64,000 bases of DNA from assembly GCF_044324785.1 (NCBI RefSeq), contig NZ_CP172127.1; one strand, 5' to 3'. Position 1 is the stretch's first letter; the number at the start of each line of letters is the position of its first letter. The notes below the pieces were generated by a model, which had not been told where the DNA came from, searched no databases, and saw only the letters and a program-made list of their open reading frames with translations. Of this stretch, positions 39,731-64,000 are shown one piece after another. Source of the DNA: Escherichia coli. GTDB taxonomy: Bacteria; Pseudomonadota; Gammaproteobacteria; Enterobacterales; Enterobacteriaceae. A program made the position numbers and the translations under genes.

Positions 39731-41269
39731 ATGCAACAACCTGTAGTTCGCGTTGGCGAATGGCTTGTTACTCCGTCCATAAACCAAATTAGCCGCAATG
39801 GGCGTCAACTTACCCTTGAGCCGAGATTAATCGATCTTCTGGTTTTCTTTGCTCAACACAGTGGCGAAGTACTTAGCAGGGATGAACTTATCGATAATGT
39901 CTGGAAGAGAAGTATTGTCACCAATCACGTTGTGACGCAGAGTATCTCAGAACTACGTAAGTCATTAAAAGATAATGATGAAGATAGTCCTGTCTATATC
40001 GCTACTGTACCAAAGCGCGGCTATAAATTAATGGTGCCGGTTATCTGGTACAGCGAAGAAGAGGGAGAGGAAATAATGCTATCTTCGCCTCCCCCTATAC
40101 CAGAGGCGGTTCCTGACACAGCTTCTCCCTCCCACAGTCTTAACATTCAAAACACCGCAACACCACCTGAACAATCCCCTGTTAAAAGCAAACGATTCAC
40201 TACCTTTTGGGTATGGTTTTTTTTCCTGTTGTCGTTAGGTATCTGTGTAGCACTGGTAGCGTTTTCAAGTCTTGATACACGTCTTCCTATGAGCAAATCG
40301 CGTATTTTGCTCAATCCACGCGATATTGACATTAATATGGTTAATAAGAGTTGTAACAGCTGGAGTTCTCCGTATCAGCTCTCTTACGCGATAGGCGTGG
40401 GTGATTTGGTGGCGACATCACTTAACACCTTCTCCACCTTTATGGTGCATGACAAAATCAACTACAACATTGATGAACCGAGCAGTTCCGGTAAAACATT
40501 ATCTATTGCGTTTGTTAATCAGCGCCAATACCGTGCTCAACAATGCTTTATGTCGGTAAAATTGGTAGACAATGCAGATGGTTCAACCATGCTGGATAAA
40601 CGTTATGTCATCACTAACGGTAATCAGCTGGCGATTCAAAATGATTTACTCCAGAGTTTATCAAAAGCGTTAAACCAACCATGGCCACAACGAATGCAGG
40701 AGATGCTCCAGCAAATTTTGCCGCATCGTGGTGCGTTATTAACTAATTTTTATCAGGCACATGATTATTTACTGCATGGTGATGATAAATCATTGGATCG
40801 TGCCAGTGAATTATTAGGTGAGATTGTTCAATCATCCCCAGAATTTACCTACGCGAGAGCAGAAAAAGCATTAGTTGATATCGTGCGCCATTCTCAACAT
40901 CCTTTAGCCGAAAAACAATTAGCAGCACTGAACACAGAAATAGATAACATTGTTACACTGCCGGAATTGAACAACCTGTCCATTATATATCAAATAAAAG
41001 CGGTCAGTGCCCTGGTAAAAGGTAAAACAGATGAGTCTTATCAGGCGATAAATACTGGCATTGATCTTGAAATGTCCTGGCTAAATTATGTGTTGCTTGG
41101 CAAGGTTTATGAAATGAAGGGGATGAACCGGGAAGCAGCTGATGCATATCTCACCGCCTTTAATTTACGCCCAGGGGCAAACACCCTTTACTGGATTGAA
41201 AATGGTATATTCCAGACTTCTGTTCCTTATGTTGTACCTTATCTCGACAAATTTCTCGCTTCAGAATAA
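39731..41269 (+). CDS. cadC: CadC, membrane-integrated ToxR-like activator of cadBA
   Basis: 512 aa, MQQPVVRVGEWLVTPSINQISRNGRQLTLEPRLIDLLVFF...; single TM segment (FTTFWVWFFFLLSLGICVALVAF); matches K-12 CadC. Confidence 0.95.
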   Translation: MQQPVVRVGEWLVTPSINQISRNGRQLTLEPRLIDLLVFFAQHSGEVLSRDELIDNVWKRSIVTNHVVTQSISELRKSLKDNDEDSPVYIATVPKRGYKLMVPVIWYSEEEGEEIMLSSPPPIPEAVPDTASPSHSLNIQNTATPPEQSPVKSKRFTTFWVWFFFLLSLGICVALVAFSSLDTRLPMSKSRILLNPRDIDINMVNKSCNSWSSPYQLSYAIGVGDLVATSLNTFSTFMVHDKINYNIDEPSSSGKTLSIAFVNQRQYRAQQCFMSVKLVDNADGSTMLDKRYVITNGNQLAIQNDLLQSLSKALNQPWPQRMQEMLQQILPHRGALLTNFYQAHDYLLHGDDKSLDRASELLGEIVQSSPEFTYARAEKALVDIVRHSQHPLAEKQLAALNTEIDNIVTLPELNNLSIIYQIKAVSALVKGKTDESYQAINTGIDLEMSWLNYVLLGKVYEMKGMNREAADAYLTAFNLRPGANTLYWIENGIFQTSVPYVVPYLDKFLASE

Positions 41270-41634
41270 GTAACTCCCGGGTTGATTCATACTCGGGAAT
41301 ATTTGTTGTTGAGCTTTTGTATGTTTCTGTTGGTATAATATGTTGCGGCAATTTATTTGCCGCATAATTTTCATTACATAAATTTAACCAAAGAATGTTC
41401 CGCAATCCATTGTAAACATTGAATGTTTATCTTTTCATGATATCAACTTGCGATCCTGATGTGTTAATAAAAAACCTCAAGTTCTCACTTACAGAAACTT
41501 TTGTGTTATTTCACCTAATCTTTAGGATTAATCCTTTTTTCGTGAGTATTCTTAGCGCCAGTTTGGTCTGGTCAGGAAATAGTTATACATCATGACCCGG
41601 ACTCCAAATTCAAAAATGAAATTAGGAGAAGAGC
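41270..41634 (+). promoter_or_regulatory. cadC-cadB intergenic region containing the Pcad promoter and CadC binding region
   Basis: AT-rich 365-bp region upstream of cadB; Pcad and CadC sites are described for this interval in K-12 (established knowledge); exact sites not mapped here. Confidence 0.55.
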
Positions 41635-42969
41635 ATGAGTTCTGCCAAGAAGATCGGGCTATTTGCCTGTACCGGTGTTGTTGCCGGTAATATGATGGGG
41701 AGCGGTATTGCATTATTACCTGCGAACCTAGCAAGTATCGGTGGTATTGCTATCTGGGGTTGGATTATCTCTATTATTGGTGCAATGTCGCTGGCATATG
41801 TATATGCCCGACTGGCAACAAAAAACCCGCAACAAGGTGGCCCAATTGCTTATGCCGGAGAAATTTCCCCTGCATTTGGTTTTCAGACAGGTGTTCTTTA
41901 TTACCATGCTAACTGGATTGGTAACCTGGCGATTGGTATTACCGCTGTATCTTATCTTTCCACCTTCTTCCCAGTATTAAATGATCCTGTTCCGGCGGGT
42001 ATCGCCTGTATTGCTATCGTCTGGGTATTTACCTTTGTAAATATGCTCGGCGGTACCTGGGTAAGCCGTTTAACCACTATTGGTCTGGTGCTGGTTCTTA
42101 TTCCTGTGGTTATGACTGCTATTGTTGGCTGGCATTGGTTTGATGCTGCGACTTATGCCGCTAACTGGAATACTGCGGATACCACCGATGGTCATGCGAT
42201 CATTAAAAGTATTCTGCTCTGCCTGTGGGCCTTCGTGGGTGTTGAATCCGCAGCTGTAAGTACTGGTATGGTTAAAAACCCGAAACGTACCGTTCCGCTG
42301 GCAACCATGCTGGGTACTGGTTTAGCAGGTATTGTTTATATCGCTGCGACTCAGGTGCTTTCCGGTATGTATCCGTCTTCTGTAATGGCAGCTTCCGGTG
42401 CTCCGTTTGCAATCAGTGCTTCAACTATCCTCGGTAACTGGGCTGCGCCGCTGGTTTCTGCATTCACCGCCTTTGCGTGCCTGACTTCTCTGGGCTCCTG
42501 GATGATGTTGGTAGGCCAGGCAGGTGTACGTGCCGCTAACGACGGTAACTTCCCGAAAGTTTATGGTGAAGTCGACAGCAACGGTATTCCGAAAAAAGGT
42601 CTGCTGCTGGCTGCAGTGAAAATGACTGCCCTGATGATCCTCATCACTCTGATGAACTCTGCCGGTGGTAAAGCATCTGACCTGTTCGGTGAACTGACCG
42701 GTATCGCAGTACTGCTGACTATGCTGCCGTACTTCTACTCTTGCGTTGACCTGATTCGTTTTGAAGGCGTTAACATCCGCAACTTTGTCAGCCTGATCTG
42801 CTCTGTACTGGGTTGCGTGTTCTGCTTCATCGCGCTGATGGGCGCAAGCTCCTTCGAGCTGGCAGGTACCTTCATCGTCAGCCTGATTATCCTGATGTTC
42901 TACGCTCGCAAAATGCACGAGCGCCAGAGCCACTCAATGGATAACCACACAGCGTCTAACGCACATTAA
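41635..42969 (+). CDS. cadB: CadB lysine:cadaverine antiporter
   Basis: 444 aa APC-family transporter, [43 protein letters not shown]... Confidence 0.95.
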   Translation: MSSAKKIGLFACTGVVAGNMMGSGIALLPANLASIGGIAIWGWIISIIGAMSLAYVYARLATKNPQQGGPIAYAGEISPAFGFQTGVLYYHANWIGNLAIGITAVSYLSTFFPVLNDPVPAGIACIAIVWVFTFVNMLGGTWVSRLTTIGLVLVLIPVVMTAIVGWHWFDAATYAANWNTADTTDGHAIIKSILLCLWAFVGVESAAVSTGMVKNPKRTVPLATMLGTGLAGIVYIAATQVLSGMYPSSVMAASGAPFAISASTILGNWAAPLVSAFTAFACLTSLGSWMMLVGQAGVRAANDGNFPKVYGEVDSNGIPKKGLLLAAVKMTALMILITLMNSAGGKASDLFGELTGIAVLLTMLPYFYSCVDLIRFEGVNIRNFVSLICSVLGCVFCFIALMGASSFELAGTFIVSLIILMFYARKMHERQSHSMDNHTASNAH

Positions 42970-43048: not shown

Positions 43049-45196
43049 ATGAACGTTATTGCAATATTGAATCACATGGGGGTTTATTTTAAAGAAGAAC
43101 CCATCCGTGAACTTCATCGCGCGCTTGAACGTCTGAACTTCCAGATTGTTTACCCGAACGACCGTGACGACTTATTAAAACTGATCGAAAACAATGCGCG
43201 TCTGTGCGGCGTTATTTTTGACTGGGATAAATATAATCTCGAGCTGTGCGAAGAAATTAGCAAAATGAACGAGAACCTGCCGTTGTACGCGTTCGCTAAT
43301 ACGTATTCCACTCTCGATGTAAGCCTGAACGATCTGCGTTTACAGATTAGCTTCTTTGAATATGCGCTGGGTGCTGCTGAAGATATTGCTAATAAGATCA
43401 AGCAGACCACTGACGAATATATCAACACTATTCTGCCTCCGCTGACCAAAGCACTGTTTAAATATGTTCGTGAAGGTAAATATACTTTCTGTACTCCTGG
43501 TCACATGGGCGGTACTGCATTCCAGAAAAGCCCGGTAGGTAGCCTGTTCTATGATTTCTTTGGTCCGAACACCATGAAATCTGATATTTCCATTTCAGTA
43601 TCTGAACTGGGTTCTCTGCTGGATCACAGTGGTCCACACAAAGAAGCAGAACAGTATATCGCTCGCGTCTTTAACGCAGACCGCAGCTACATGGTGACCA
43701 ACGGTACTTCCACTGCGAACAAAATTGTTGGTATGTACTCTGCTCCGGCAGGCAGCACCATTCTGATTGACCGTAACTGCCACAAATCGCTGACCCACCT
43801 GATGATGATGAGCGATGTTACGCCAATCTATTTCCGCCCGACCCGTAACGCTTACGGTATTCTTGGTGGTATCCCACAGAGTGAATTCCAGCACGCTACC
43901 ATTGCTAAGCGCGTGAAAGAAACACCAAACGCAACCTGGCCGGTACATGCTGTAATTACCAACTCTACCTATGATGGTCTGCTGTACAACACCGACTTCA
44001 TCAAGAAAACACTGGATGTGAAATCCATCCACTTTGACTCCGCGTGGGTGCCTTACACCAACTTCTCACCGATTTACGAAGGTAAATGCGGTATGAGCGG
44101 TGGCCGTGTAGAAGGGAAAGTGATTTACGAAACCCAGTCTACTCACAAACTGCTGGCGGCGTTCTCTCAGGCTTCCATGATCCACGTTAAAGGTGACGTA
44201 AACGAAGAAACCTTTAACGAAGCCTACATGATGCACACCACCACTTCTCCGCACTACGGTATCGTGGCGTCCACTGAAACCGCTGCGGCGATGATGAAAG
44301 GCAATGCAGGTAAGCGTCTGATCAACGGTTCCATTGAACGTGCGATCAAATTCCGTAAAGAGATCAAACGTCTGAGAACGGAATCTGATGGCTGGTTCTT
44401 TGATGTATGGCAGCCGGATCATATCGATACGACTGAATGCTGGCCGCTGCGTTCTGACAGCACCTGGCACGGCTTCAAAAACATCGATAACGAGCACATG
44501 TATCTTGACCCGATCAAAGTCACCCTGCTGACTCCGGGGATGGAAAAAGACGGCACCATGAGCGACTTCGGTATTCCGGCCAGCATCGTGGCGAAATACC
44601 TCGACGAACATGGCATCGTTGTTGAGAAAACCGGTCCGTATAACCTGCTGTTCCTGTTCAGCATCGGTATCGATAAGACCAAAGCACTGAGCCTGCTGCG
44701 TGCTCTGACAGACTTCAAACGTGCGTTCGATCTGAACCTGCGTGTGAAAAACATGCTGCCGTCTCTGTATCGTGAAGATCCTGAATTCTATGAAAACATG
44801 CGTATTCAGGAACTGGCTCAGAATATCCACAAACTGATTGTTCACCACAATCTGCCGGATCTGATGTATCGCGCATTTGAAGTTCTGCCGACCATGGTAA
44901 TGACTCCGTATGCTGCGTTCCAGAAAGAGCTGCACGGTATGACCGAAGAAGTTTACCTCGACGAAATGGTAGGTCGTATTAACGCCAATATGATCCTTCC
45001 GTATCCGCCGGGAGTTCCTCTGGTAATGCCGGGTGAAATGATCACCGAAGAAAGCCGTCCGGTTCTGGAGTTCCTGCAGATGCTGTGTGAAATCGGCGCT
45101 CACTATCCGGGCTTTGAAACCGATATTCACGGTGCATACCGTCAGGCTGATGGCCGCTATACCGTTAAGGTATTGAAAGAAGAAAGCAAAAAATAA
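43049..45196 (+). CDS. cadA: CadA inducible lysine decarboxylase
   Basis: 715 aa from MNVIAILNHMGVYFKEEPIREL...; PLP-dependent fold-III decarboxylase motifs (STHKLL); intact reading frame. Confidence 0.95.
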   Translation: MNVIAILNHMGVYFKEEPIRELHRALERLNFQIVYPNDRDDLLKLIENNARLCGVIFDWDKYNLELCEEISKMNENLPLYAFANTYSTLDVSLNDLRLQISFFEYALGAAEDIANKIKQTTDEYINTILPPLTKALFKYVREGKYTFCTPGHMGGTAFQKSPVGSLFYDFFGPNTMKSDISISVSELGSLLDHSGPHKEAEQYIARVFNADRSYMVTNGTSTANKIVGMYSAPAGSTILIDRNCHKSLTHLMMMSDVTPIYFRPTRNAYGILGGIPQSEFQHATIAKRVKETPNATWPVHAVITNSTYDGLLYNTDFIKKTLDVKSIHFDSAWVPYTNFSPIYEGKCGMSGGRVEGKVIYETQSTHKLLAAFSQASMIHVKGDVNEETFNEAYMMHTTTSPHYGIVASTETAAAMMKGNAGKRLINGSIERAIKFRKEIKRLRTESDGWFFDVWQPDHIDTTECWPLRSDSTWHGFKNIDNEHMYLDPIKVTLLTPGMEKDGTMSDFGIPASIVAKYLDEHGIVVEKTGPYNLLFLFSIGIDKTKALSLLRALTDFKRAFDLNLRVKNMLPSLYREDPEFYENMRIQELAQNIHKLIVHHNLPDLMYRAFEVLPTMVMTPYAAFQKELHGMTEEVYLDEMVGRINANMILPYPPGVPLVMPGEMITEESRPVLEFLQMLCEIGAHYPGFETDIHGAYRQADGRYTVKVLKEESKK

Positions 45197-45254: not shown

Positions 45255-46712
45255 ATGAAAACACCCTCACAGCCGCGCGCGATATACTATATCGTGGCGA
45301 TCCAAATCTGGGAGTACTTCAGTTTTTACGGCATGCGTGCCTTACTCATTCTCTATCTCACCCATCAGCTTGGTTTTGATGATAACCATGCCATCAGCCT
45401 GTTCAGCGCATATGCTTCTCTGGTTTACGTTACCCCTATTCTCGGCGGCTGGCTTGCCGACCGCCTGCTCGGCAACCGCACTGCAGTGATTGCCGGCGCG
45501 CTGTTAATGACCCTTGGCCATGTGGTGCTGGGCATTGATACAAATTCAACTTTTAGCCTGTATCTGGCGCTGGCTATCATTATTTGTGGCTACGGTTTAT
45601 TCAAATCAAACATCAGCTGTTTACTTGGCGAGCTCTACGACGAGAACGATCATCGACGTGATGGCGGTTTTTCGCTGCTGTATGCTGCAGGCAATATCGG
45701 TTCTATCGCCGCCCCCATCGCCTGCGGCCTGGCTGCTCAGTGGTATGGATGGCATGTTGGCTTTGCCCTTGCGGGTGGCGGCATGTTTATCGGTTTGTTG
45801 ATTTTCTTAAGCGGTCATCGTCATTTCCAGTCCACGCGTAGTATGGATAAGAAAGCGCTCACTAGCGTCAAATTTGCCTTACCAGTATGGAGCTGGTTAG
45901 TGGTGATGCTCTGTTTAGCCCCAGTATTTTTTACCCTGCTGCTGGAGAACGACTGGTCCGGATATTTGCTGGCGATCGTTTGCCTCATTGCAGCACAAAT
46001 CATTGCCCGCATGATGATCAAATTCCCCGAACACCGCCGTGCTCTTTGGCAAATTGTATTGTTGATGTTTGTCGGGACGTTGTTCTGGGTACTGGCACAA
46101 CAGGGCGGCAGTACCATCAGCTTGTTTATCGATCGCTTTGTGAATCGTCAGGCATTCAATATTGAAGTACCTACAGCACTATTCCAGTCGGTGAATGCCA
46201 TTGCGGTGATGCTCGCTGGGGTTGTTCTGGCCTGGCTGGCGTCGCCAGAAAGCCGCGGCAATTCAGCATTGCGCGTCTGGCTGAAGTTTGCCTTTGGCTT
46301 ACTGCTGATGGCTTGTGGCTTTATGTTGCTGGCATTTGATGCCCGACATGCAGCGGCTGGCGGTCAAGCGTCAATGGGCGTGATGGTATCCGGGCTGGCG
46401 CTAATGGGCTTTGCTGAACTCTTTATTGACCCGGTGGCGATTGCGCAAATCACGCGTCTGAAAATGTCTGGCGTATTAACCGGTATTTATATGCTGGCAA
46501 CAGGCGCGGTCGCCAACTGGCTGGCAGGCGTCGTGGCACAGCAGACGACAGAGTCGCAAATTAGCGGTATGGCAATTGCCGCTTACCAGCGATTCTTTTC
46601 TCAGATGGGAGAGTGGACGTTGGCTTGTGTCGCGATCATCGTGGTATTGGCCTTTGCTACCCGTTTTCTGTTTAGCACGCCGACGAATATGATACAGGAG
46701 AGCAACGATTAA
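45255..46712 (+). CDS. dtpC: DtpC (YjdL) di/tripeptide permease, POT family
   Basis: 485 aa, [36 protein letters not shown]...; POT/PTR2 signature region. Confidence 0.9.
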
Positions 46713-46948: not shown

Positions 46949-48466
46949 ATGTCTGAACGAGAAACACGGGGAGCCAATGAGGCTATTGATTTTAACGATG
47001 AACTGAGAAATCGCCGCGAAAAACTGGCGGCACTACGTCAGCAAGGTGTGGCGTTTCCCAATGATTTTCGCCGCGACCATACCTCTGACAAGTTGCACGA
47101 AGAGTTTGATGCGAAGGATAACCAGGAACTGGAATCCTTAAACATTGAAGTCTCGGTTGCTGGCCGAATGATGACCCGTCGTATCATGGGGAAAGCCTCC
47201 TTTGTAACGTTGCAGGATGTCGGTGGCCGTATTCAACTGTACGTTGCAAGAGATAGCCTGCCAGAAGGTGTTTATAACGATCAGTTTAAAAAATGGGATC
47301 TGGGTGACATTATCGGTGCCCGCGGTACGCTGTTTAAGACGCAAACGGGTGAGCTTTCCATTCACTGTACTGAGCTGCGCCTGCTGACTAAAGCACTACG
47401 TCCTTTACCAGATAAATTCCATGGTCTGCAGGATCAGGAAGTCCGTTATCGTCAACGTTATCTGGACCTCATCGCTAACGATAAATCCCGTCAAACGTTT
47501 GTTGTCCGTTCAAAAATTCTGGCCGCTATCCGTCAGTTCATGGTCGCGCGCGGCTTTATGGAAGTAGAAACCCCGATGATGCAGGTAATTCCAGGTGGGG
47601 CATCTGCTCGCCCGTTTATTACCCATCATAACGCTCTGGATTTAGATATGTACCTGCGTATCGCGCCGGAGCTGTATCTGAAACGTCTGGTTGTAGGCGG
47701 TTTTGAACGGGTATTCGAAATCAACCGTAACTTCCGTAATGAAGGTATTTCTGTTCGCCATAATCCTGAGTTCACAATGATGGAACTCTACATGGCGTAT
47801 GCGGATTACCACGATTTGATTGAACTGACGGAGTCACTGTTCCGCACCCTGGCACAAGAGGTTCTGGGTACCACTAAAGTCACTTATGGCGAGCATGTGT
47901 TTGATTTCGGCAAACCGTTTGAAAAACTCACCATGCGCGAAGCAATCAAAAAATATCGTCCAGAAACCGATATGGCCGACCTGGATAATTTTGATGCTGC
48001 TAAAGCATTAGCTGAATCTATCGGAATTACGGTAGAGAAAAGCTGGGGTCTGGGACGTATTGTTACGGAGATCTTTGATGAAGTGGCAGAAGCACATCTG
48101 ATTCAGCCAACCTTTATTACGGAATATCCGGCAGAAGTGTCCCCGCTGGCGCGCCGTAATGATGTTAACCCGGAAATCACCGACCGTTTTGAATTCTTCA
48201 TCGGTGGTCGTGAAATCGGTAATGGTTTTAGCGAATTAAACGATGCAGAAGATCAGGCTGAACGTTTCCAGGAACAGGTTAACGCTAAAGCTGCAGGTGA
48301 CGACGAAGCCATGTTCTATGACGAAGATTACGTGACTGCGCTGGAATATGGTCTGCCGCCAACCGCTGGTCTGGGTATTGGTATCGACCGAATGATTATG
48401 CTGTTTACAAACAGTCATACTATTCGCGACGTTATTCTCTTCCCGGCGATGCGCCCACAGAAATAA
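46949..48466 (+). CDS. lysU: LysU lysine--tRNA ligase (heat-inducible)
   Basis: 505 aa from [40 protein letters not shown]...; class II aaRS motifs; the track ORF starts 27 nt upstream at an in-frame Met. Confidence 0.95.
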
Positions 48467-48584: not shown

Positions 48585-48758
48585 CTAAAAGAGAGAAAAA
48601 AGTAATGCCACAGGCAGACTCATTGGCCAGGTTATTCCTACCAGGAATGCACTAAGTAAACGAATATGTGTTTTCTCATGTGAGATAAACCAGATAATGA
48701 CAAAGGATATGTTCACACCAATCACATAAAAAATTAATATTTTAGAGAATAGTGCCAT
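48585..48758 (-). CDS. ghoT: GhoT type V toxin (small membrane-lytic peptide), 57 aa, below the ORF-track size cut-off
   Basis: Minus-strand translation MALFSKILIFYVIGVNISFVIIWFISHEKTHIRLLSAFLVGITWPMSLPVALLFSLF*; two hydrophobic helices; immediately downstream of ghoS. Confidence 0.8.
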   Translation of the reverse strand: MALFSKILIFYVIGVNISFVIIWFISHEKTHIRLLSAFLVGITWPMSLPVALLFSLF

Positions 48759-48785: not shown

Positions 48786-49082
48786 CTACTTGTAAAACTG
48801 ACGGAAATAGTCATCAACTGTCATAATGTTGAGGTCAAAGTCAATATCCGGTAAGTCTAAGCATTTAAGCCTGATTAAATCTTCGATTTCACTTGCGGCT
48901 AATGATGTCGTTATTGCGAAGGAATTTTCATTCAATTGTCGTGGTATCCCATATTCATCAGCCACGATAGAGGAGAAATTCATATCATGCATCAATGATC
49001 TTAACCTTAAGAACACTGAGGAATAAGATGATGGATAATCAAAAGAAACAACATAAGTATTGAACTTGTTTTTACCTTCCAT
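48786..49082 (-). CDS. ghoS: GhoS type V antitoxin (sequence-specific endoribonuclease; YjdK)
   Basis: 98 aa MEGKNKFNTYVVSFDYPSSYSSVFLRLRSLMHDMNFSSIVADEYGIPRQLNENSFAITTSL... matches GhoS as recalled. Confidence 0.85.
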   Translation of the reverse strand: MEGKNKFNTYVVSFDYPSSYSSVFLRLRSLMHDMNFSSIVADEYGIPRQLNENSFAITTSLAASEIEDLIRLKCLDLPDIDFDLNIMTVDDYFRQFYK

Positions 49083-49310: not shown

Positions 49311-49583
49311 TCAACTGCGAATATCATCATACTCCCGTGTTTTATCAAATTCGTGTTTCGCAAATGGGCATAGTGGGATAATTTTTCGTTTTTCCCGACG
49401 CATTTTTTCCACGACTTTCGCAACCAGCTGTTTACCAATCCCCTGCCCTTTCAGGCTTTCATCGACATCGGTATGTTCGATAATCGCTAAATTCTCTCCG
49501 GTCGGCACAAAGACAATTTCAGCGATTTGCTTGCCCTGTTCGTCATTAATGTAAAATTTATTGTGGCCTTCGCGTATTTCCAT
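49311..49583 (-). CDS. yjdJ: YjdJ GNAT-family N-acetyltransferase
   Basis: 90 aa with acetyl-CoA binding motif [14 protein letters not shown]. Confidence 0.8.
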
Positions 49584-54341: not shown

Positions 54342-55988
54342 ATGTCAAACAAACCCTTTATCTACCAGGCACCTTTCCCGATGGGGAAAGACAATACCGA
54401 ATACTATCTACTCACTTCCGATTACGTTAGCGTTTCCGACTTCGACGGCGAAACCATTCTGAAAGTGGAACCAGAAGCCCTGACCCTGCTGGCGCAGCAA
54501 GCCTTTCACGACGCTTCTTTCATGCTCCGCCCGGCCCACCAGAAACAGGTCGCGGCTATTCTTCACGATCCAGAAGCCAGCGAAAACGACAAGTACGTGG
54601 CGCTGCAATTCTTAAGAAACTCCGAAATCGCCGCCAAAGGCGTACTGCCGACCTGCCAGGACACCGGCACCGCGATCATCGTCGGTAAAAAAGGCCAGCG
54701 CGTGTGGACCGGTGGCGGTGATGAAGAAGCGCTGTCGAAAGGCGTCTATAACACCTATATCGAGGATAACCTGCGCTATTCACAGAACGCGCCGCTGGAC
54801 ATGTATAAAGAGGTCAACACCGGCACGAACCTGCCTGCGCAAATCGACCTGTACGCGGTAGATGGCGATGAGTACAAATTCCTTTGCGTTGCGAAAGGCG
54901 GCGGCTCTGCCAACAAAACCTATCTCTACCAGGAAACCAAAGCCCTGCTGACTCCCGGCAAACTGAAAAACTTCCTCGTTGAGAAAATGCGTACCCTCGG
55001 TACTGCAGCCTGCCCGCCGTACCATATCGCGTTTGTGATTGGCGGTACGTCTGCGGAAACCAACCTGAAAACCGTCAAGTTAGCAAGCGCTCACTATTAC
55101 GATGAACTGCCGACGGAAGGGAACGAACATGGTCAGGCGTTCCGCGATGTCCAGCTGGAACAGGAACTGCTGGAAGAGGCCCAGAAACTCGGTCTTGGCG
55201 CGCAGTTTGGCGGTAAATACTTCGCGCACGACATTCGCGTTATCCGTCTGCCACGTCACGGCGCATCCTGCCCGGTAGGCATGGGCGTCTCCTGCTCCGC
55301 TGACCGTAACATTAAAGCGAAAATCAACCGCGAAGGTATCTGGATCGAAAAACTGGAACACAATCCAGGCCAGTACATTCCACAAGAACTGCGTCAGGCC
55401 GGTGAAGGCGAAGCGGTGAAAGTCGACCTTAACCGCCCGATGAAAGAGATCCTCGCCCAGCTTTCGCAATACCCGGTATCCACCCGCTTGTCGCTCACCG
55501 GCACCATTATCGTGGGTCGAGATATTGCACACGCCAAGCTGAAAGAGCTGATTGACGCCGGTAAAGAACTGCCGCAGTACATCAAAGATCACCCGATCTA
55601 CTACGCGGGTCCGGCGAAAACGCCTGCCGGTTATCCATCAGGTTCACTTGGCCCAACCACCGCAGGTCGTATGGACTCCTACGTGGATCTGCTGCAATCC
55701 CACGGCGGCAGCATGATCATGCTGGCGAAAGGCAACCGCAGCCAGCAGGTTACCGACGCGTGCCATAAACACGGCGGCTTTTACCTCGGTAGCATCGGCG
55801 GTCCAGCGGCGGTACTGGCGCAGCAGAGCATCAAGCATCTGGAATGCGTCGCTTATCCGGAGCTGGGTATGGAAGCTATCTGGAAAATCGAAGTAGAAGA
55901 TTTCCCGGCGTTTATCCTGGTCGATGACAAAGGTAACGACTTCTTCCAGCAAATCGTCAACAAACAGTGCGCGAACTGCACTAAGTAA
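54342..55988 (+). CDS. fumB: FumB class I fumarate hydratase (anaerobic)
   Basis: 548 aa, [31 protein letters not shown]...; Fe-S class I fumarase family. Confidence 0.95.
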
Positions 55989-56110
55989 CCTCTTCGGCCC
56001 AGCGCCTGGCAGCATGCTGCCAGGTGATCCCCCTGGGCCACCTCTTTTGCGATTGTAATTTCACGCTTGCTGGTGAATAGTCAGTATTTTCCCTGACTTG
56101 CGAACTCACC

Positions 56111-56761
56111 ATGACCCGCACACTCAAGCCGTTAATTCTTAACACCGGCGCACTGGCGCTAACGTTAATCCTGATTTATACCGGCATTTCGGCCCATGAC
56201 AAACTCACCTGGCTGATGGAAGTGACACCGGTGATTATTGTCGTGCCGCTACTGCTTGCCACCGCCAGACGTTATCCGTTAACGCCGCTGCTCTATACGC
56301 TCATTTTCTTTCACGCCATCATCCTGATGGTCGGCGGACAATACACCTACGCGAAAGTCCCCGTTGGTTTTGAGGTGCAGGAATGGCTGGGGTTGAGTCG
56401 TAATCCGTATGACAAGCTGGGGCACTTTTTCCAGGGGCTGGTGCCTGCACTGGTGGCACGAGAAATTCTCGTTCGCGGGATGTACGTGCGCGGACGTAAA
56501 ATGGTGGCGTTCCTGGTCTGCTGCGTGGCGCTGGCGATAAGCGCGATGTATGAATTAATCGAGTGGTGGGCGGCGCTGGCAATGGGCCAGGGAGCGGATG
56601 ATTTTCTCGGCACCCAGGGCGACCAGTGGGACACGCAATCCGATATGTTCTGCGCGCTGCTTGGCGCATTAACGACGGTGATATTCCTCGCTCGCTTTCA
56701 TTGCCGCCAGCTACGGCGCTTTGGCTTAATCACCAGAGCGCCGGAAGCGATTACCCCTTAA
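56111..56761 (+). CDS. yjdF: YjdF inner-membrane protein (DUF2238)
   Basis: 216-aa hydrophobic ORF, MTRTLKPLILNTGALALTLILIYTGISAHDK...; the true start may lie upstream; the stop overlaps the melA stop. Confidence 0.8.
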   Translation: MTRTLKPLILNTGALALTLILIYTGISAHDKLTWLMEVTPVIIVVPLLLATARRYPLTPLLYTLIFFHAIILMVGGQYTYAKVPVGFEVQEWLGLSRNPYDKLGHFFQGLVPALVAREILVRGMYVRGRKMVAFLVCCVALAISAMYELIEWWAALAMGQGADDFLGTQGDQWDTQSDMFCALLGALTTVIFLARFHCRQLRRFGLITRAPEAITP

Positions 56762-58113
56762 CGGTGCAACCAGCCAGGCAGCCAGTCGCCGTGGGCAGCA
56801 ATCAAGTCGTCAACAAGAGCATATATTTCGTCAATGCCCAGCACGGCGGCAGTATGCGGGTCCATCATCGCGGCGTGGTAAACACGGTCGCGATTTTCCG
56901 TAAGAATGGCTTCGGTCAGCAGCGTCTGTACGTTGATGTTGGTTTGCATCAGAGCGGCCAGATGCGAAGGTAGCGTACCGACTTTGGTCGGCTGAATGCC
57001 ATTAGCATCAACCAGACAGGCTACTTCCACGCAACATCCTTGTGGCAGGTTATCAATCAAACCATCGTTACGGACGTTGCCGTAAATCACACTCGGCTCG
57101 CCAGTCCAGATAGCGTTCATGATTGTGCTGGCATATTCCCGTGACGGTTTAATATCAATCCGGGAGGCGTTTTTATACTCCTCCAGCTCTTTATGCCAGT
57201 TCGCCAGCTGCTCGACGCAGCGTTTCGGGTACTCATCCAGCGGTACTTTATAACGCTCAATCAAATCCTCACGACCTGGCTTAATAAACCACGGTGTGTA
57301 CTCAGCAAAATGTTCTGACGATTCCGTGACGAAGTAGCCCAGCTTTTTGAACATTTCGTAGCGCACAATATTCTGGCAGCGAGTATTGCCATGAATATTC
57401 GGCTTCGGTGCCTGCCCTGCTTCATAAGCCGCCAGCAGTTCCGGGTAGAGATTCACGTAACTGCCGTCGGCGGTTTTGCGCTCCAGTTCCAGGTAAAACG
57501 CCATATGGTTGATACCTGCGCAACGGTAACGTAGCGTAGCCGGGTCGATATTGAGGTCACGCGCCAGCTCTTCCGCCGTTCCCTGCACCGAATGGCACAA
57601 CCCTACCTGTTTGATATGCGGATAGTGGGCATACATCGCCCAGGTATTCATCGCCATTGGGTTAACGTAGTTGAGCATGGTGGCATCGGGGCAGACTTCC
57701 GTCATGTCCTCGCAAATTTGCCACAGATGCGGAATGGTACGTAGCGCGCGCATAATACCGCCCGGCCCCAACGTATCGGCAATGGTTTGTTCCAGACCAT
57801 GCCGCTTACAGACCTCGAAATCAGTCACCGTGCAAGGTTCATAACCGCCAATCTGAAATGCCACCACCACAAAATCGGCATCCTGTAAGGCTTCTTTCTG
57901 TTGGGTGTGGCAGGTGATTTTGCCGCTGGCCCCTGCTGAATCCATCAGCTTACGCACCACAATGTGCGACTCTTCCAGGCGGGTGGGATCAATGTCCATC
58001 AGGGCAATATGCGCCGTTTTCAGCGCCTCGCGATGGAACACATCACCAAGAATATTTTTAACGAAAATCGTCGAACCAGCGCCGATAAATGTAATTTTGG
58101 GTGCAGACATCAT
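56758..58113 (-). CDS. melA: MelA alpha-galactosidase (NAD/Mn-dependent, GH4)
   Basis: 451 aa, MMSAPKITFIGAGSTIFVKNILGDVFHREAL... ...AAHGDWLPGWLHR; intact. Confidence 0.95.
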   Translation of the reverse strand: MMSAPKITFIGAGSTIFVKNILGDVFHREALKTAHIALMDIDPTRLEESHIVVRKLMDSAGASGKITCHTQQKEALQDADFVVVAFQIGGYEPCTVTDFEVCKRHGLEQTIADTLGPGGIMRALRTIPHLWQICEDMTEVCPDATMLNYVNPMAMNTWAMYAHYPHIKQVGLCHSVQGTAEELARDLNIDPATLRYRCAGINHMAFYLELERKTADGSYVNLYPELLAAYEAGQAPKPNIHGNTRCQNIVRYEMFKKLGYFVTESSEHFAEYTPWFIKPGREDLIERYKVPLDEYPKRCVEQLANWHKELEEYKNASRIDIKPSREYASTIMNAIWTGEPSVIYGNVRNDGLIDNLPQGCCVEVACLVDANGIQPTKVGTLPSHLAALMQTNINVQTLLTEAILTENRDRVYHAAMMDPHTAAVLGIDEIYALVDDLIAAHGDWLPGWLHR

Positions 58114-58395: not shown

Positions 58396-59304
58396 ATGAA
58401 TACAGATACGTTTATGTGCAGCAGCGACGAAAAACAGACCCGCAGCCCGCTGTCGCTGTATTCGGAATACCAGCGGATGGAGATTGAGTTTCGCGCACCG
58501 CATATCATGCCCACCAGCCACTGGCATGGTCAGGTCGAAGTGAATGTGCCTTTCGATGGCGATGTGGAATACCTGATCAACAATGAAAAAGTGAATATCA
58601 ATCAGGGTCATATCACGCTGTTCTGGGCCTGTACACCGCACCAACTAACAGATACCGGAACCTGTCAGAGCATGGCGATTTTTAATCTGCCGATGCATCT
58701 GTTTCTCTCCTGGCCGCTGGATAAAGACCTGATTAACCACGTCACTCACGGCATGGTGATCAAATCACTGGCCACACAGCAACTTAGCCCGTTTGAAGTG
58801 CGCCGCTGGCAGCAGGAATTGAACAGTCCGAACGAGCAAATTCGCCAGCTCGCCATTGATGAAATTGGCCTGATGCTCAAGCGATTTAGCCTCTCTGGCT
58901 GGGAACCGATTCTGGTCAATAAAACCTCGCGCACACACAAAAACAGCGTCTCGCGCCATGCGCAATTTTATGTCAGCCAGATGCTGGGCTTTATTGCCGA
59001 AAACTATGATCAGGCGCTGACCATCAACGATGTGGCTGAGCACGTCAAACTTAACGCCAACTATGCAATGGGGATATTCCAGCGGGTCATGCAATTGACG
59101 ATGAAACAGTACATAACCGCGATGCGCATCAACCACGTTCGCGCGTTACTGAGCGATACCGATAAAAATATTCTCGATATTGCCCTGACGGCAGGCTTTC
59201 GTTCAAGTAGTCGTTTTTACAGCACGTTCGGCAAATATGTCGGCATGTCGCCGCAACAATACCGCAAACTTAGCCAACAGCGCCGCCAGACGTTTCCCGG
59301 CTAA
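58396..59304 (+). CDS. melR: MelR AraC-family melibiose operon activator
   Basis: 302 aa; C-terminal AraC-type HTH (...DILDIALTAGFRSSSRFYSTFGKYVGMSPQQYR). Confidence 0.95.
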   Translation: MNTDTFMCSSDEKQTRSPLSLYSEYQRMEIEFRAPHIMPTSHWHGQVEVNVPFDGDVEYLINNEKVNINQGHITLFWACTPHQLTDTGTCQSMAIFNLPMHLFLSWPLDKDLINHVTHGMVIKSLATQQLSPFEVRRWQQELNSPNEQIRQLAIDEIGLMLKRFSLSGWEPILVNKTSRTHKNSVSRHAQFYVSQMLGFIAENYDQALTINDVAEHVKLNANYAMGIFQRVMQLTMKQYITAMRINHVRALLSDTDKNILDIALTAGFRSSSRFYSTFGKYVGMSPQQYRKLSQQRRQTFPG

Positions 59305-59502: not shown

Positions 59503-61770
59503 ATGAAAGTATTAATTGTTGAAAGCGAGTTTCTCCATCAAGACACCTGGGTCGGTAACGCCGTTGAGCGTCTGGCAGATGCTTTAAGCCAGCAAAATGT
59601 TACCGTGATTAAATCCACCTCCTTTGATGATGGTTTTGCCATTCTCTCTTCAAACGAAGCCATTGACTGCCTGATGTTCAGCTATCAAATGGAACATCCG
59701 GACGAACATCAAAACGTCAGACAATTGATCGGTAAGCTTCATGAGCGTCAACAAAACGTGCCGGTCTTCCTGTTGGGCGATCGGGAAAAAGCCCTCGCCG
59801 CAATGGACCGGGATCTGCTGGAGCTTGTCGATGAATTCGCCTGGATTCTGGAAGATACCGCCGACTTTATCGCCGGACGCGCCGTTGCCGCGATGACCCG
59901 CTACCGCCAGCAACTGTTGCCGCCACTGTTCAGCGCGCTGATGAAATATAGCGACATCCATGAATATTCCTGGGCAGCGCCAGGCCACCAGGGTGGCGTT
60001 GGTTTTACCAAAACACCCGCCGGACGTTTCTACCATGACTACTATGGTGAAAATCTGTTCCGCACCGACATGGGCATCGAACGAACTTCCCTCGGTTCTT
60101 TGCTTGACCATACTGGCGCATTTGGCGAAAGCGAAAAATATGCCGCACGCGTATTTGGTGCCGATCGCTCCTGGTCGGTAGTCGTCGGTACTTCCGGCTC
60201 TAACCGCACCATCATGCAGGCTTGCATGACCGATAACGATGTCGTGGTCGTTGACCGTAACTGCCATAAATCCATCGAACAAGGCTTGATGCTGACAGGC
60301 GCGAAACCGGTCTACATGGTGCCAAGCCGCAACCGCTACGGCATTATCGGGCCAATCTATCCGCAGGAAATGCAACCTGAAACCTTGCAGAAGAAAATCA
60401 GTGAAAGCCCGCTGACTAAAGACAAAGCCGGGCAAAAACCGTCTTACTGCGTAGTGACCAACTGTACCTATGACGGCGTGTGTTATAACGCTAAAGAAGC
60501 GCAGGATCTGCTGGAAAAAACCTCCGATCGTCTGCACTTTGACGAAGCCTGGTACGGCTATGCACGTTTCAACCCGATCTATGCCGATCACTATGCCATG
60601 CGCGGCGAACCTGGCGATCACAACGGTCCTACCGTTTTCGCCACCCACTCCACCCACAAACTACTGAATGCACTGTCACAGGCCTCTTATATTCATGTAC
60701 GTGAAGGTCGTGGGGCGATTAACTTCTCCCGCTTCAACCAGGCCTACATGATGCATGCCACCACCTCCCCGCTGTATGCCATCTGTGCATCCAACGACGT
60801 GGCAGTGTCGATGATGGACGGCAACAGCGGCCTGTCACTGACCCAGGAAGTGATCGACGAAGCGGTTGATTTCCGTCAGGCGATGGCGCGGCTGTATAAA
60901 GAGTTCACCGCTGACGGTAGCTGGTTCTTCAAACCGTGGAACAAAGAAGTCGTCACCGACCCACAAACCGGCAAAACCTATGACTTTGCTGACGCACCAA
61001 CCAAACTGCTGACCACCGTTCAGGACTGCTGGGTCATGCATCCGGGCGAAAGCTGGCACGGCTTCAAAGATATTCCGGATAACTGGAGTATGCTCGACCC
61101 GATTAAAGTCAGCATCCTTGCTCCGGGAATGGGTGAAGATGGTGAACTGGAAGAAACCGGTGTTCCGGCGGCGCTGGTCACTGCCTGGCTTGGTCGCCAC
61201 GGCATTGTGCCTACCCGCACCACTGACTTCCAAATCATGTTCCTGTTCTCTATGGGCATAACCCGTGGGAAATGGGGGACTCTGGTTAACACCCTTTGCT
61301 CCTTCAAACGCCACTATGACGCCAACACACCGCTGGCGCAGGTGATGCCGGAACTTGTTGAACAATATCCTGACACTTACGCGAACATGGGGATTCACGA
61401 TCTGGGTGACACCATGTTTGCCTGGCTGAAAGAAAACAACCCTGGCGCACGGTTGAACGAAGCCTATTCCGGCCTGCCGGTGGCGGAAATCACCCCGCGT
61501 GAAGCGTACAACGCGATTGTCGACAACAATGTCGAACTGGTATCCATTGAAAATCTGCCAGGACGCATCGCGGCAAACTCAGTTATCCCGTATCCGCCAG
61601 GAATCCCGATGCTGCTGTCTGGTGAAAACTTCGGCGATAAAAACAGTCCGCAAGTAAGTTATTTACGCTCGCTGCAATCCTGGGACCATCATTTCCCTGG
61701 ATTTGAACACGAAACAGAAGGGACAGAAATTATTGACGGTATTTACCACGTTATGTGTGTGAAAGCGTAA
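59503..61770 (+). CDS. adiA: AdiA biodegradative arginine decarboxylase
   Basis: 755 aa from MKVLIVESEFLHQDTWVGNAVERLADAL...; PLP fold-III decarboxylase paralogous to CadA. Confidence 0.95.
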   Translation: MKVLIVESEFLHQDTWVGNAVERLADALSQQNVTVIKSTSFDDGFAILSSNEAIDCLMFSYQMEHPDEHQNVRQLIGKLHERQQNVPVFLLGDREKALAAMDRDLLELVDEFAWILEDTADFIAGRAVAAMTRYRQQLLPPLFSALMKYSDIHEYSWAAPGHQGGVGFTKTPAGRFYHDYYGENLFRTDMGIERTSLGSLLDHTGAFGESEKYAARVFGADRSWSVVVGTSGSNRTIMQACMTDNDVVVVDRNCHKSIEQGLMLTGAKPVYMVPSRNRYGIIGPIYPQEMQPETLQKKISESPLTKDKAGQKPSYCVVTNCTYDGVCYNAKEAQDLLEKTSDRLHFDEAWYGYARFNPIYADHYAMRGEPGDHNGPTVFATHSTHKLLNALSQASYIHVREGRGAINFSRFNQAYMMHATTSPLYAICASNDVAVSMMDGNSGLSLTQEVIDEAVDFRQAMARLYKEFTADGSWFFKPWNKEVVTDPQTGKTYDFADAPTKLLTTVQDCWVMHPGESWHGFKDIPDNWSMLDPIKVSILAPGMGEDGELEETGVPAALVTAWLGRHGIVPTRTTDFQIMFLFSMGITRGKWGTLVNTLCSFKRHYDANTPLAQVMPELVEQYPDTYANMGIHDLGDTMFAWLKENNPGARLNEAYSGLPVAEITPREAYNAIVDNNVELVSIENLPGRIAANSVIPYPPGIPMLLSGENFGDKNSPQVSYLRSLQSWDHHFPGFEHETEGTEIIDGIYHVMCVKA

Positions 61771-61877
61771 CCACTATTCCGCTGAAGGCGTAATTGTTAA
61801 ATAACATTACGCCGCCTGGCTTGAGGCCTTTTAAGTATGGCAACGTTTTCATAAAAATTGCTGCAAACAAAAAATGT

Positions 61878-61904
61878 CATGCTTTTTGCGCGGTCCCACC
61901 CCGC
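61878..61904 (+). terminator. Intrinsic terminator downstream of adiA
   Basis: GCGCGG-tcccac-CCGCGC followed by TTTTTTTT. Confidence 0.7.
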
Positions 61905-62105
61905 GCTTTTTTTTGCCTGTTATTTATCCTTTTTTTAGCCTGTAAAAAAATATGTACATGAGAAATTACTATAAAAATTTGTAATATTAGTAAAACTCGT
62001 TATTTTTATGCATGTTTATATTCATCATACAATTATATAACCATTTCCCGGTATCGCTTCGCTTTAGCGAGAACTGGTCTTTTATTCGCACTCAGGAGTA
62101 CATGT

Positions 62106-62867
62106 ATGAGGATTTGCAGCGACCAACCTTGTATTGTTTTATTGACTGAAAAAGATGTCTGGATAAGGGTGAATGGGAAAGAACCTATTAGCCTTAAAGC
62201 TAACCATATGGCGTTATTAAATTGTGAAAATAATATTATCGACGTCTCCTCTCTTAATAACACTTTGGTTGCTCATATTAGTCACGACATCATCAAAGAT
62301 TACCTCCGGTTTCTGAATAAAGATCTCTCGCAAATACCAGTATGGCAACGTAGCGCTACGCCCATCCTCACCCTTCCATGCCTGACGCCAGACGTCTTTC
62401 GCGTTGCCGCGCAACATAGCATGATGCCCGCTGAAACTGAGTCAGAAAAGGAACGAACACGTGCATTATTATTCACTGTGCTATCCCGTTTTCTCGACAG
62501 TAAAAAATTCCTTTCGCTAATGATGTATATGTTACGTAATTGTGTAAGTGACAGCGTTTATCAAATTATTGAAAGCGATATCCACAAAGACTGGAATCTT
62601 AGTATGGTAGCCAGTTGTTTATGTCTTAGCCCAAGTCTGTTAAAGAAAAAGCTGAAAAGCGAAAACACCAGCTATAGCCAAATAATCACCACCTGCCGCA
62701 TGCGTTATGCCGTAAATGAATTAATGATGGACGGTAAAAATATCTCTCAGGTATCACAGTCCTGCGGCTACAACAGTACGTCTTACTTTATTTCTGTCTT
62801 TAAAGACTTCTACGGTATGACGCCGCTGCATTATGTTAGTCAGCACAGAGAACGCACTGTCGCCTGA
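62106..62867 (+). CDS. adiY: AdiY AraC-family regulator of the arginine decarboxylase system
   Basis: 253 aa, MRICSDQPCIVLLTEKDVWIRVNGKEPISL...; C-terminal AraC HTH. Confidence 0.9.
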   Translation: MRICSDQPCIVLLTEKDVWIRVNGKEPISLKANHMALLNCENNIIDVSSLNNTLVAHISHDIIKDYLRFLNKDLSQIPVWQRSATPILTLPCLTPDVFRVAAQHSMMPAETESEKERTRALLFTVLSRFLDSKKFLSLMMYMLRNCVSDSVYQIIESDIHKDWNLSMVASCLCLSPSLLKKKLKSENTSYSQIITTCRMRYAVNELMMDGKNISQVSQSCGYNSTSYFISVFKDFYGMTPLHYVSQHRERTVA

Positions 62868-63003
62868 TTTTTAACCTTAACGAAGAGCTATATTAATAAC
62901 GGCATCAGCGATAACCCGGTCGATAATAATTCAACTATCGAATGCAGGCGTATGATATGACGTAATTTATTGTCACGAAGCTCGCCTTCGCAGGAGTTTA
63001 ATT

Positions 63004-64000
63004 ATGTCTTCGGATGCTGATGCTCACAAAGTGGGCTTAATCCCCGTCACCCTGATGGTGTCGGGGAATATTATGGGGTCAGGTGTTTTTCTGTTACCTG
63101 CAAACCTGGCCTCCACTGGCGGGATTGCCATTTATGGATGGTTGGTGACGATTATCGGTGCGCTGGGGCTCTCGATGGTATACGCCAAAATGTCGTTCCT
63201 CGACCCAAGTCCTGGTGGTTCTTACGCTTACGCCCGCCGCTGCTTTGGGCCGTTTCTCGGTTATCAAACCAACGTCCTCTACTGGCTGGCCTGCTGGATC
63301 GGCAATATCGCCATGGTGGTCATTGGCGTAGGATATTTAAGTTACTTCTTCCCGATTCTGAAAGATCCACTGGTATTAACCATCACCTGCGTCGTGGTGC
63401 TGTGGATCTTCGTCCTGCTGAACATTGTCGGTCCGAAAATGATCACCCGCGTGCAGGCCGTTGCCACTGTGCTGGCGCTGATCCCCATCGTCGGGATTGC
63501 CGTATTTGGCTGGTTCTGGTTCCGTGGTGAAACCTATATGGCGGCATGGAACGTCAGCGGCCTGGGCACCTTCGGCGCGATTCAAAGTACCCTTAACGTT
63601 ACGCTGTGGTCGTTCATCGGTGTGGAAAGTGCCTCCGTTGCCGCAGGTGTGGTGAAAAACCCGAAACGCAACGTCCCTATCGCCACCATTGGTGGGGTAT
63701 TGATTGCCGCCGTTTGCTATGTGCTCTCCACCACCGCGATTATGGGGATGATCCCTAATGCCGCACTGCGCGTTTCTGCCTCGCCATTCGGTGATGCCGC
63801 ACGGATGGCGTTGGGTGACACCGCCGGGGCCATTGTTTCCTTCTGCGCAGCTGCGGGTTGCTTAGGTTCACTGGGCGGCTGGACGTTGCTGGCGGGTCAA
63901 ACGGCGAAAGCCGCTGCCGATGACGGACTGTTCCCACCGATTTTTGCCCGTGTAAATAAAGCGGGTACGCCAGTGGCAGGGCTGATTATCGTCGGTATTT
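63004..64000 (+). CDS. adiC: AdiC arginine:agmatine antiporter, 5' part (runs off the window end)
   Basis: [64 protein letters not shown]...; APC family; open to the window end. Confidence 0.9.

Follow-up and report, generated by a model that had tools for sequence, protein, structure and literature searches.

A conserved Escherichia coli core-chromosome segment carrying the cad and adi decarboxylase/antiporter modules downstream of a pheU-inserted island

The sequence analyzed in this study, hereafter called the window, is a stretch of 64,000 nucleotides of E. coli DNA whose positions 39731 to 64000 carry, in K-12 order, cadC-cadB-cadA-dtpC-lysU-ghoT/ghoS-yjdJ-yjdI-dcuS-dcuR-dcuB-fumB-yjdF-melA-melR-adiA-adiY-adiC. 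A check of the coordinates places the ATG of cadC at position 39731, and position 64000 is the end of the window and falls inside adiC. A genomic island precedes this segment, and two features mark the transition from one to the other:

39093..39114, plus strand: 22 nt duplicating the 3′ terminus of pheU (tRNA-Phe), the right-hand attachment repeat that closes the upstream genomic island
39312..39474, plus strand: yjdQ, a P4-like integrase remnant (a pseudogene in K-12), 96.3% identical over 163 nt to K-12 yjdQ

Homology to both K-12 and E. coli 042 begins at the repeat at 39093, and no intact tRNA was found in the window. The distance from pheU to the yjdQ remnant is occupied by more than 39 kb of genomic island in the window, whereas it is only 198 nt in K-12. 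Near this boundary, Pfam models identify a ParE-family toxin at 38522-38848, and they assign the 288-amino-acid open reading frame at 37324-38190 to DUF4942, which led us to reject a guess, made from the size of the frame, that it encodes an IS3 transposase. An Rfam scan of positions 38500-64000 returned no RNA family at gathering thresholds. Neither the island at pheU nor its mobile elements have damaged the adjoining core, from about position 39093 onward.

When K-12 genes were compared with the window by using blastn, full-length and gapless matches with 98.1-99.6% nucleotide identity were obtained for cadC, cadB, cadA, dtpC, lysU, ghoT, ghoS, yjdJ, yjdI, dcuS, dcuR, dcuB, fumB, melA, melR, adiA and adiY. 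Partial matches were obtained for yjdF (624 of 630 nt) and for adiC (997 of 1338 nt, extending to the window end), and melB had no match in the window. On translation, the genes of the block all have ATG starts and zero internal stop codons, and they retain K-12 lengths and correct stop codons except for yjdF and the adiC gene that is cut by the window end. The CadA, CadB, DcuS, DcuB and GhoT proteins, as well as residues 1-332 of AdiC, are 100% identical to their K-12 counterparts. Scores above the curated NCBIfam cut-offs were obtained with every one of the models for lysine decarboxylase, CadB, CadC, AdiC and arginine decarboxylase.

The corresponding region of K-12 MG1655 (b4115-b4133; NC_000913.3, 4335694-4361934) has the same genes in the same order and orientation, with 98.4-98.7% nucleotide identity over two colinear blocks. 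Relative to K-12, the window lacks melB, encodes a YjdF protein of 216 amino acids, carries eight substitutions in CadC, and has small intergenic indels, one of them an insertion of 11 nt between adiA and adiY. Of the complete genomes, E. coli 042 (EAEC; NC_017626.1) matches best, with 99.0% identity over 24.9 kb and no internal indels. Since this is a single colinear alignment that lacks indels in the core, the synteny is far beyond chance. We also searched the 19 genes and all intergenic regions for hidden lesions relative to K-12 and 042, and found no internal stop codons, frameshifts or altered starts; the only indels are intergenic and are seen only against K-12. These alignments bear out the gene identifications of the first-pass annotation, and likewise its claim of synteny with K-12 apart from melB.

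The cad module accounts for the first part of the segment. The K-12 sequence of the Cad1 41-mer and a proposed TTAxxxxT contact motif have been reported previously (PMC5430869), and the regulatory sites are given here accordingly:

39731..41269, plus strand: cadC, ToxR-like activator of cadBA that is integrated in the membrane and senses pH and lysine; 512 amino acids, intact by blastn and translation
41410..41450, plus strand: Cad1, CadC-binding site, matched to the K-12 41-mer; one A>G change relative to K-12 at 41421
41474..41504, plus strand: Cad2, CadC-binding site, -89 to -59 in the 41-mer numbering of the paper; identical to K-12
41521..41580, plus strand: core promoter of cadBA with the site of transcription initiation, which lies near 41557-41563; two SNPs relative to K-12, at 41549 and 41555
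41635..42969, plus strand: cadB, lysine:cadaverine antiporter; 444 amino acids, identical to K-12
43049..45196, plus strand: cadA, inducible lysine decarboxylase; 715 amino acids, identical to K-12

CadC scores 753 bits against the NCBIfam equivalog model NF007540 (cut-off 400). None of its eight substitutions relative to K-12 (A129D, D131A, I276V, E308Q, T325M, K328Q, N356D and D393A) falls in the DNA-binding domain (residues 1-107), in the transmembrane helix (residues 160-183) or at the R184/L185 cleavage site (PMC11484849). Strain 042, whose CadC differs from that of the window at residues 131, 356 and 393, has the other five of these changes. All eight also spare C208 and C272, which form a disulfide. 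An identical CadC allele occurs in 373 collection blocks and on 265 contigs with an E. coli label. We therefore rejected these substitutions as inactivating changes, as evident by their location outside the known functional elements and by the wide distribution of the allele. D131A and D393A are confined to this group of CadC alleles, yet the allele itself is widespread.

The A>G change in Cad1 falls at the center of the quasi-palindrome, on the 'A' of the proposed TTAxxxxT motif. This Cad1 allele is identical in 3645 of the 5171 complete genomes examined (70% of those carrying the site), and a promoter defect was rejected because it is the majority allele of E. coli. The SNPs at 41549 and 41555 precede the inferred start of transcription by about 14 and 8 nt and are near the -10 region. 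They too were rejected as lesions, given that a core-promoter 60-mer identical to that of the window is found in 1914 of 5180 complete genomes (37%). Strain 042 has the same Cad1 and core-promoter alleles as the window.

CadB scores 920 bits against model NF007754 (cut-off 585), and its gene is directly upstream of cadA, with a gap of 79 nt as in K-12. The true start of cadA is at 43049, whereas the mechanically called open reading frame begins at 43010. CadA is a full-length fold-III PLP lysine decarboxylase that scores 1628 bits against model NF011929 (cut-off 1056), and its complete identity to the K-12 protein confirms the initial view that cadA is intact. The first-pass annotation made its reading depend on alignments of cadA, cadB and cadC, and we observe no inactivating changes in any of the three genes, which align without gaps to K-12 and 042 and are accompanied by common regulatory alleles.

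The cad and adi modules are separated by the following genes and by the site of the melB deletion:

45255..46712, plus strand: dtpC (yjdL), dipeptide/tripeptide permease; 485 amino acids, three substitutions relative to K-12
46949..48466, plus strand: lysU, inducible lysyl-tRNA synthetase; 505 amino acids, two substitutions
48585..48758, minus strand: ghoT, type V toxin; 57 amino acids, identical to K-12
48786..49082, minus strand: ghoS, type V antitoxin; 98 amino acids, one substitution
49311..49583, minus strand: yjdJ, GNAT-family acetyltransferase; 90 amino acids
49595..49825, minus strand: yjdI; 76 amino acids
50006..51637, plus strand: dcuS, C4-dicarboxylate sensor kinase; 543 amino acids, identical to K-12
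51634..52353, plus strand: dcuR, response regulator; 239 amino acids, M125I
52924..54264, plus strand: dcuB, anaerobic C4-dicarboxylate transporter; 446 amino acids, identical to K-12
54342..55988, plus strand: fumB, anaerobic class I fumarase; 548 amino acids, three substitutions
56111..56761, plus strand: yjdF, DUF2238 membrane protein; 216 amino acids versus 209 in K-12
56738..56757, no strand: melB deletion junction, where about 1665 nt of K-12 (melB and flanks) are replaced by about 20 nt
56758..58113, minus strand: melA, alpha-galactosidase; 451 amino acids, intact, three substitutions
58396..59304, plus strand: melR, AraC-family regulator; 302 amino acids, S258N

The loss of melB, which the first-pass annotation singled out as an exception to K-12 synteny, is confirmed by the mapped junction, and represents the only structural departure of the core from K-12. 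It is also a common polymorphism of E. coli, as the same junction between yjdF and melA is present in 1264 of 5426 complete genomes (about 23%), including 042. The new C-terminal tail of YjdF results from this deletion, and the exact 216-amino-acid protein occurs on 538 contigs. A literature search for a described E. coli lineage lacking melB yielded nothing useful.

[quoted passage not shown]

59503..61770, plus strand: adiA, inducible arginine decarboxylase; 755 amino acids, with the conservative changes V586I and V663I
62106..62867, plus strand: adiY, AraC-family activator of adi, located between adiA and adiC; 253 amino acids, V136L
63004..64000, plus strand: adiC, arginine:agmatine antiporter; truncated by the end of the window after codon 332 of 445, with the available residues identical to K-12

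AdiA scores 1704 bits against model NF011603 (cut-off 1167), and the available codons of AdiC score 692 bits against NF007929 (cut-off 574). AdiY is identical to the K-12 protein at 252 of 253 residues, and its exact sequence is widespread and is named AdiY by its sources. The original claim that both acid-resistance systems are intact stands for Cad but was slightly overstated for Adi, because adiC runs off the window. However, the draft genome of a relative (GCA_037978695.1) is 100% identical to positions 46111-64000 of the window (17.9 kb), encodes a 445-amino-acid AdiC identical to that of K-12, and continues from the complete adiC into eptA and basR. Judging by this relative, codons 333-445 are probably complete in the source strain as well.

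In comparisons with K-12, the cad and adi genes yield pN/pS values between 0 and 0.17 (cadB, cadA and the available adiC, 0; adiA and adiY, 0.02; cadC, 0.17), and these low values indicate that the genes are under purifying selection. Of 5426 complete E. coli genomes, 4595 contain 80% or more of the segment at a single location. Given these findings, we consider it about 95% probable that the block is a conserved segment of the E. coli core chromosome (about 93.5-94 min on the K-12 map, b4115-b4133), located directly downstream of a pheU-inserted island and carrying two complete and independently regulated decarboxylase/antiporter modules. The cad-dcu-adi block as such is ordinary and already well known, and there is nothing novel about it.

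If the modules operate in the manner expected from their gene content, CadC would sense low pH and, by way of a LysP protein encoded elsewhere, also lysine. The activated protein would then bind Cad1 and Cad2 in the promoter Pcad to turn on cadBA. CadA would decarboxylate lysine, consuming a proton in the process, while CadB would exchange cadaverine for lysine. Similarly, AdiA would decarboxylate arginine under anaerobic acid conditions, with AdiC exchanging agmatine for arginine and AdiY serving as the activator. The housekeeping and anaerobic genes located between the modules (dtpC, lysU, ghoST, dcuSR-dcuB-fumB and melAR) are neighbors by descent rather than parts of one machine. From its gene content, the source strain probably expresses both systems and is both LDC-positive and ADC-positive, and this being a standard genotype, the significance of the segment beyond annotation is small. 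LysP, ldcC, RavA/ViaA, H-NS and RcsB/GadE influence these systems, and all are encoded outside the window.

The intact cadA gene had also been taken to argue against a Shigella or EIEC background. The cad loci of these bacteria occupy the same chromosomal locus as that of the window, and the EIEC cad region is colinear with that of K-12 (PMC5723341). According to published descriptions, the locus is eroded or deleted in Shigella, whereas in classical EIEC it is cadC that has been hit by IS insertions or other lesions, and in some cases cadB is frameshifted or the entire locus is missing. The window locus is intact and has none of these features, as alignments to K-12 and 042 reveal no deletion, IS insertion or frameshift in cadC, cadB or cadA. 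The argument points in the right direction but is weaker than it was made out to be: an intact cadA excludes erosion or deletion of the Shigella kind, not EIEC. The gene is a weak marker because EIEC usually silence cadC and keep cadBA. Loss of lysine decarboxylase in EIEC is mainly due to inactivation of cadC, with cadBA remaining intact in HN280, 4608 and 53638, and the cad operon is intact in EIEC of serotype O96:H19, which are LDC-positive (PMC5723341; PMC4156367). Since cadC and Pcad are also intact in the window, an LDC-positive genotype is predicted, which would be atypical for Shigella and for classical EIEC. Such backgrounds are made unlikely by the intact locus, which does not weigh against the newer EIEC clones, and calls of pathotype should include inspection of cadC and Pcad rather than of cadA alone.

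The same precedent raises the question of whether the cad module is cryptically silenced, in the manner of EIEC, by a regulatory or missense lesion such as CadC D131A/D393A, the A>G change in Cad1 or the core-promoter SNPs at 41549 and 41555. EIEC do silence the system mainly through cadC while cadBA remains intact, and the window differs from K-12 at eight CadC residues, at the center of Cad1 and at two positions upstream of the transcription start. However, these variants are all common, as evident by the 70% and 37% of site-carrying complete genomes that share the Cad1 and core-promoter alleles and by the 265 contigs with the same CadC. Furthermore, all 27 differences between cadB and cadA and their K-12 counterparts are synonymous, and this, along with the pN/pS value for cadC, is unlike the pattern of a decaying locus. 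The lesions reported for EIEC are IS insertions, frameshifts and deletions, none of which is present in the window. We therefore regard silencing as highly improbable.

Least probable of all is the proposal that cad and adi lie close together around dcuSR-dcuB-fumB as a functionally selected supra-operon for acid and anaerobiosis. In its favor, both systems are acid-induced when oxygen is limiting and are controlled by H-NS and RcsB/GadE (PMC2984483), a negative effect of CadC on the adi system has been reported (Casalino 2010, cited in PMC4156367), and the order is kept in at least 4595 of the 5426 genomes. However, descent alone explains conservation within a species at 98-99% identity, and the intervening lysU, ghoST, melAR and yjdF are functionally unrelated. 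The block also tolerates the melB deletion (23% of genomes) and, in a close relative, the insertion of an IS at ghoS, and the window shows nothing that sets it apart from other E. coli.

Returning to the reading of the block as a conserved core segment, two of its variable features offer some room for speculation. The CadC allele, with its lineage-restricted D131A in the cytoplasmic linker and D393A in the periplasmic sensor, might shift the threshold for pH, lysine or cadaverine. Likewise, the melB-less junction, which adds seven residues to YjdF and leaves the ends of yjdF and melA convergently overlapping, might change the expression level of melA, which has been orphaned. We consider functional effects of this kind very unlikely.

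Among 5426 RefSeq complete genomes, no close relative of this lineage was found in this region, and the closest assemblies are GCA_037978695.1, GCA_020389665.1 and GCA_053151395.1. Strain 042, which likewise has an island remnant upstream of cadC, differs from the window by 251 SNPs. Their density is uneven, ranging from 0-2 per kb near 46 kb and at 59-61 kb to about 20 per kb at 54-56 kb, and this pattern suggests a recombination mosaic.

The genes of the cad-dcu-adi segment were located from an ORF listing together with a blastn search of the window with K-12 MG1655 genes b4115-b4133. The segment start proposed in the first-pass annotation, 39731, is the ATG of cadC to the base, and its claim of synteny with K-12 apart from melB holds, as 19 genes are colinear with the K-12 order read in reverse (98.1-99.6% gapless nucleotide identity by blastn across the 19) and K-12 melB has no blastn match in the window. 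This layout is the ordinary, already known core order of E. coli. In 4595 of 5426 RefSeq complete E. coli genomes, a single place covers 80% or more of the 24-kb query.

Genes of the core segment (ORF listing and blastn against K-12; position, strand, gene)
39731-41269, +, cadC
41635-42969, +, cadB
43049-45196, +, cadA
45255-46712, +, dtpC (yjdL)
46949-48466, +, lysU
48585-48758, -, ghoT
48786-49082, -, ghoS
49311-49583, -, yjdJ
49595-49825, -, yjdI
50006-51637, +, dcuS
51634-52353, +, dcuR
52924-54264, +, dcuB
54342-55988, +, fumB
56111-56761, +, yjdF
56758-58113, -, melA
58396-59304, +, melR
59503-61770, +, adiA
62106-62867, +, adiY
63004 to window end, +, adiC

Translation of the window revealed ATG starts, proper stops and K-12 lengths for the 19 genes, except for YjdF (216 versus 209 residues) and adiC, which is cut at the window end; no internal stop was found in any of them. 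The frame of cadA is open, as had been claimed, and CadA (715 residues) and CadB (444 residues) are the K-12 proteins without a single difference, their two genes together carrying 27 synonymous and no non-synonymous changes. DcuS, DcuB and GhoT likewise have K-12 protein sequences, whereas AdiA differs from K-12 by V586I and V663I and AdiY by V136L. The pN/pS values relative to K-12 (0 for cadB, cadA and adiC, 0.02 for adiA and adiY, 0.17 for cadC) reflect purifying selection rather than decay. Curated NCBIfam cut-offs are well exceeded for CadC, the cadaverine/lysine antiporter, lysine decarboxylase, arginine decarboxylase and the arginine/agmatine antiporter, and also for DcuR, the DcuS family, the Dcu transporter and class I fumarase.

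An open frame can hide inactivating changes in cadA, cadB or cadC, and such lesions were sought in CadC residues, the cadBA promoter (Pcad) and indels; none was found. The 512-residue CadC carries eight substitutions relative to K-12 (A129D, D131A, I276V, E308Q, T325M, K328Q, N356D and D393A), which map to the disordered cytoplasmic linker (129 and 131) and the periplasmic domain (276-393). All eight lie outside the C208/C272 disulfide of CadC. None falls within the DNA-binding domain (residues 1-107), the transmembrane helix (160-183) or the cleavage site R184/L185, as these elements have been described (PMC11484849). Five of the eight are common to CadC of the EAEC strain 042 (NC_017626.1), N356D is present in other alleles, and D131A and D393A mark the allele group of the window. 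This exact protein occurs on 265 contigs labelled E. coli and in 373 assembly-collection blocks. By alignment, there are no indels relative to 042 anywhere in the core segment, and all those relative to K-12 are intergenic.

Within Pcad, the CadC-binding site Cad2 has the K-12 sequence. Cad1 has a single difference from the K-12 41-mer (PMC5430869), A>G at 41421; this base is at the centre of a 17-mer quasi-palindrome and is the 'A' in a TTAxxxxT motif that has been proposed. Of the 5171 complete genomes with the site, 3645 have the same 41-mer as the window, and therefore K-12 carries the minority Cad1 allele. Two further SNPs relative to K-12 near the -10 region (41549 and 41555) are both common to 042, and the 60-mer containing them is identical in 1914 of 5180 genomes. 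K-12 minority alleles in this promoter concern positions 41421, 41549 and 41555. About 250 of the 5426 complete genomes yield no Pcad match and may lack cad. We conclude from these sequences that the cad system is wild type at the genotype level.

The claim that both decarboxylase/antiporter systems are intact stands for cadC, Pcad, cadB and cadA, and for AdiA, AdiY and AdiC residues 1-332; adiC as a whole cannot be read within the window, which ends at codon 332 of 445, the residues up to that point being those of K-12. A draft assembly, GCA_037978695.1, is 100% identical to window 46111-64000 (17,890 nt) and continues with a complete, K-12-identical AdiC of 445 residues, then eptA and basR, which is strong but indirect support for a complete adiC in the source. 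The adiA-adiY spacer has an 11-nt insertion (CCTTTTTTTAG) at 61928-61938 and three single-base indels nearby relative to K-12; the same stretch is indel-free relative to 042.

Intact cadA had been taken to argue against a Shigella/EIEC background. The gene is indeed intact, but the inference needs correction: cadA alone is a poor marker because O96:H19 EIEC keep an intact cad operon and are lysine decarboxylase-positive (PMC5723341, PMC4156367). The wild-type state of cadC, Pcad, cadB and cadA together supports a stronger argument, making Shigella or classical EIEC unlikely while remaining compatible with some EIEC. The observation on the already known cad-dcu-adi block is confirmed and its interpretation is partly supported. 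H-NS and RcsB/GadE provide upstream control common to cad and adi (PMC2984483), and interference of CadC with adi expression has been reported (Casalino 2010, as cited in PMC4156367); the window adds nothing on this co-regulation.

At the melB junction (56738-56757), about 20 nt replace about 1665 nt of K-12, from just beyond the melA stop to the final 6 nt of yjdF. Consequently melB is lost, YjdF has an altered tail, and the yjdF and melA stops overlap by 4 nt. Both melA and melR are intact, leaving melA as an orphan alpha-galactosidase gene. Since 1264 of 5426 complete genomes, 042 among them, have a contiguous match across the melB-less junction, the loss is a common polymorphism and not peculiar to the source strain.

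From about 39093 onwards the window is homologous to K-12 and 042. The homology opens with 22 nt that copy the 3′ end of pheU (TTCATTCCGAGTCCGGGCACCA, 39093-39114), and a yjdQ integrase remnant comes next; the 22-nt copy marks the right-hand limit of the upstream island. The 64-kb window contains no intact tRNA gene, and therefore the island is longer than 39 kb or has its pheU end beyond the window. The island tail consists of a CP4-like module with DUF932, an antirestriction protein, RadC, CbeA/CbtA, DUF5983 and DUF4942. After these comes a ParE-family toxin, which suggests a small toxin-antitoxin pair at the island edge.

Last ORFs of the island
36802-37227, DUF5983_N
37324-38190, DUF4942
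38522-38848, ParE-family toxin

The island cargo (window 1-20000) comprises an ABC transporter, sodC, an allH-like/fdrA/ylbE/xanthine permease/carbamate kinase cluster and a YadA-like adhesin, accompanied by several IS copies and fragments; the core is free of mobile-element intrusion from the island. This cargo is 99.8-100% identical in mostly avian (chicken-derived) E. coli. Two of these relatives (L013 and L014) carry IS1, IS3-family, ISL3, IS256 and IS4 copies or fragments.

For window 39000-64000, the top match among the 5426 complete genomes is 042 at 99.0%, and none of them is a close relative; draft assemblies match the core at 99.97-100%. SNPs relative to 042 are uneven (0-2 per kb at ~46 kb and 59-61 kb, ~20 per kb at 54-56 kb), which suggests a recombination mosaic. 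The 90%-identity protein cluster holding CadB also includes MnmE GTPase sequences (454 residues), which looks like a database clustering artefact rather than biology. In GCA_053151395.1, a near-identical relative (99.97-99.98%), an IS3-family element with 121- and 301-residue ORFs occupies the ghoS site (L005 19271-20499 and L012 1555-2783, two loci of that assembly; approximately window 48786-49082), leaving the ghoT toxin gene there without its antitoxin gene; ghoS is intact in the window.
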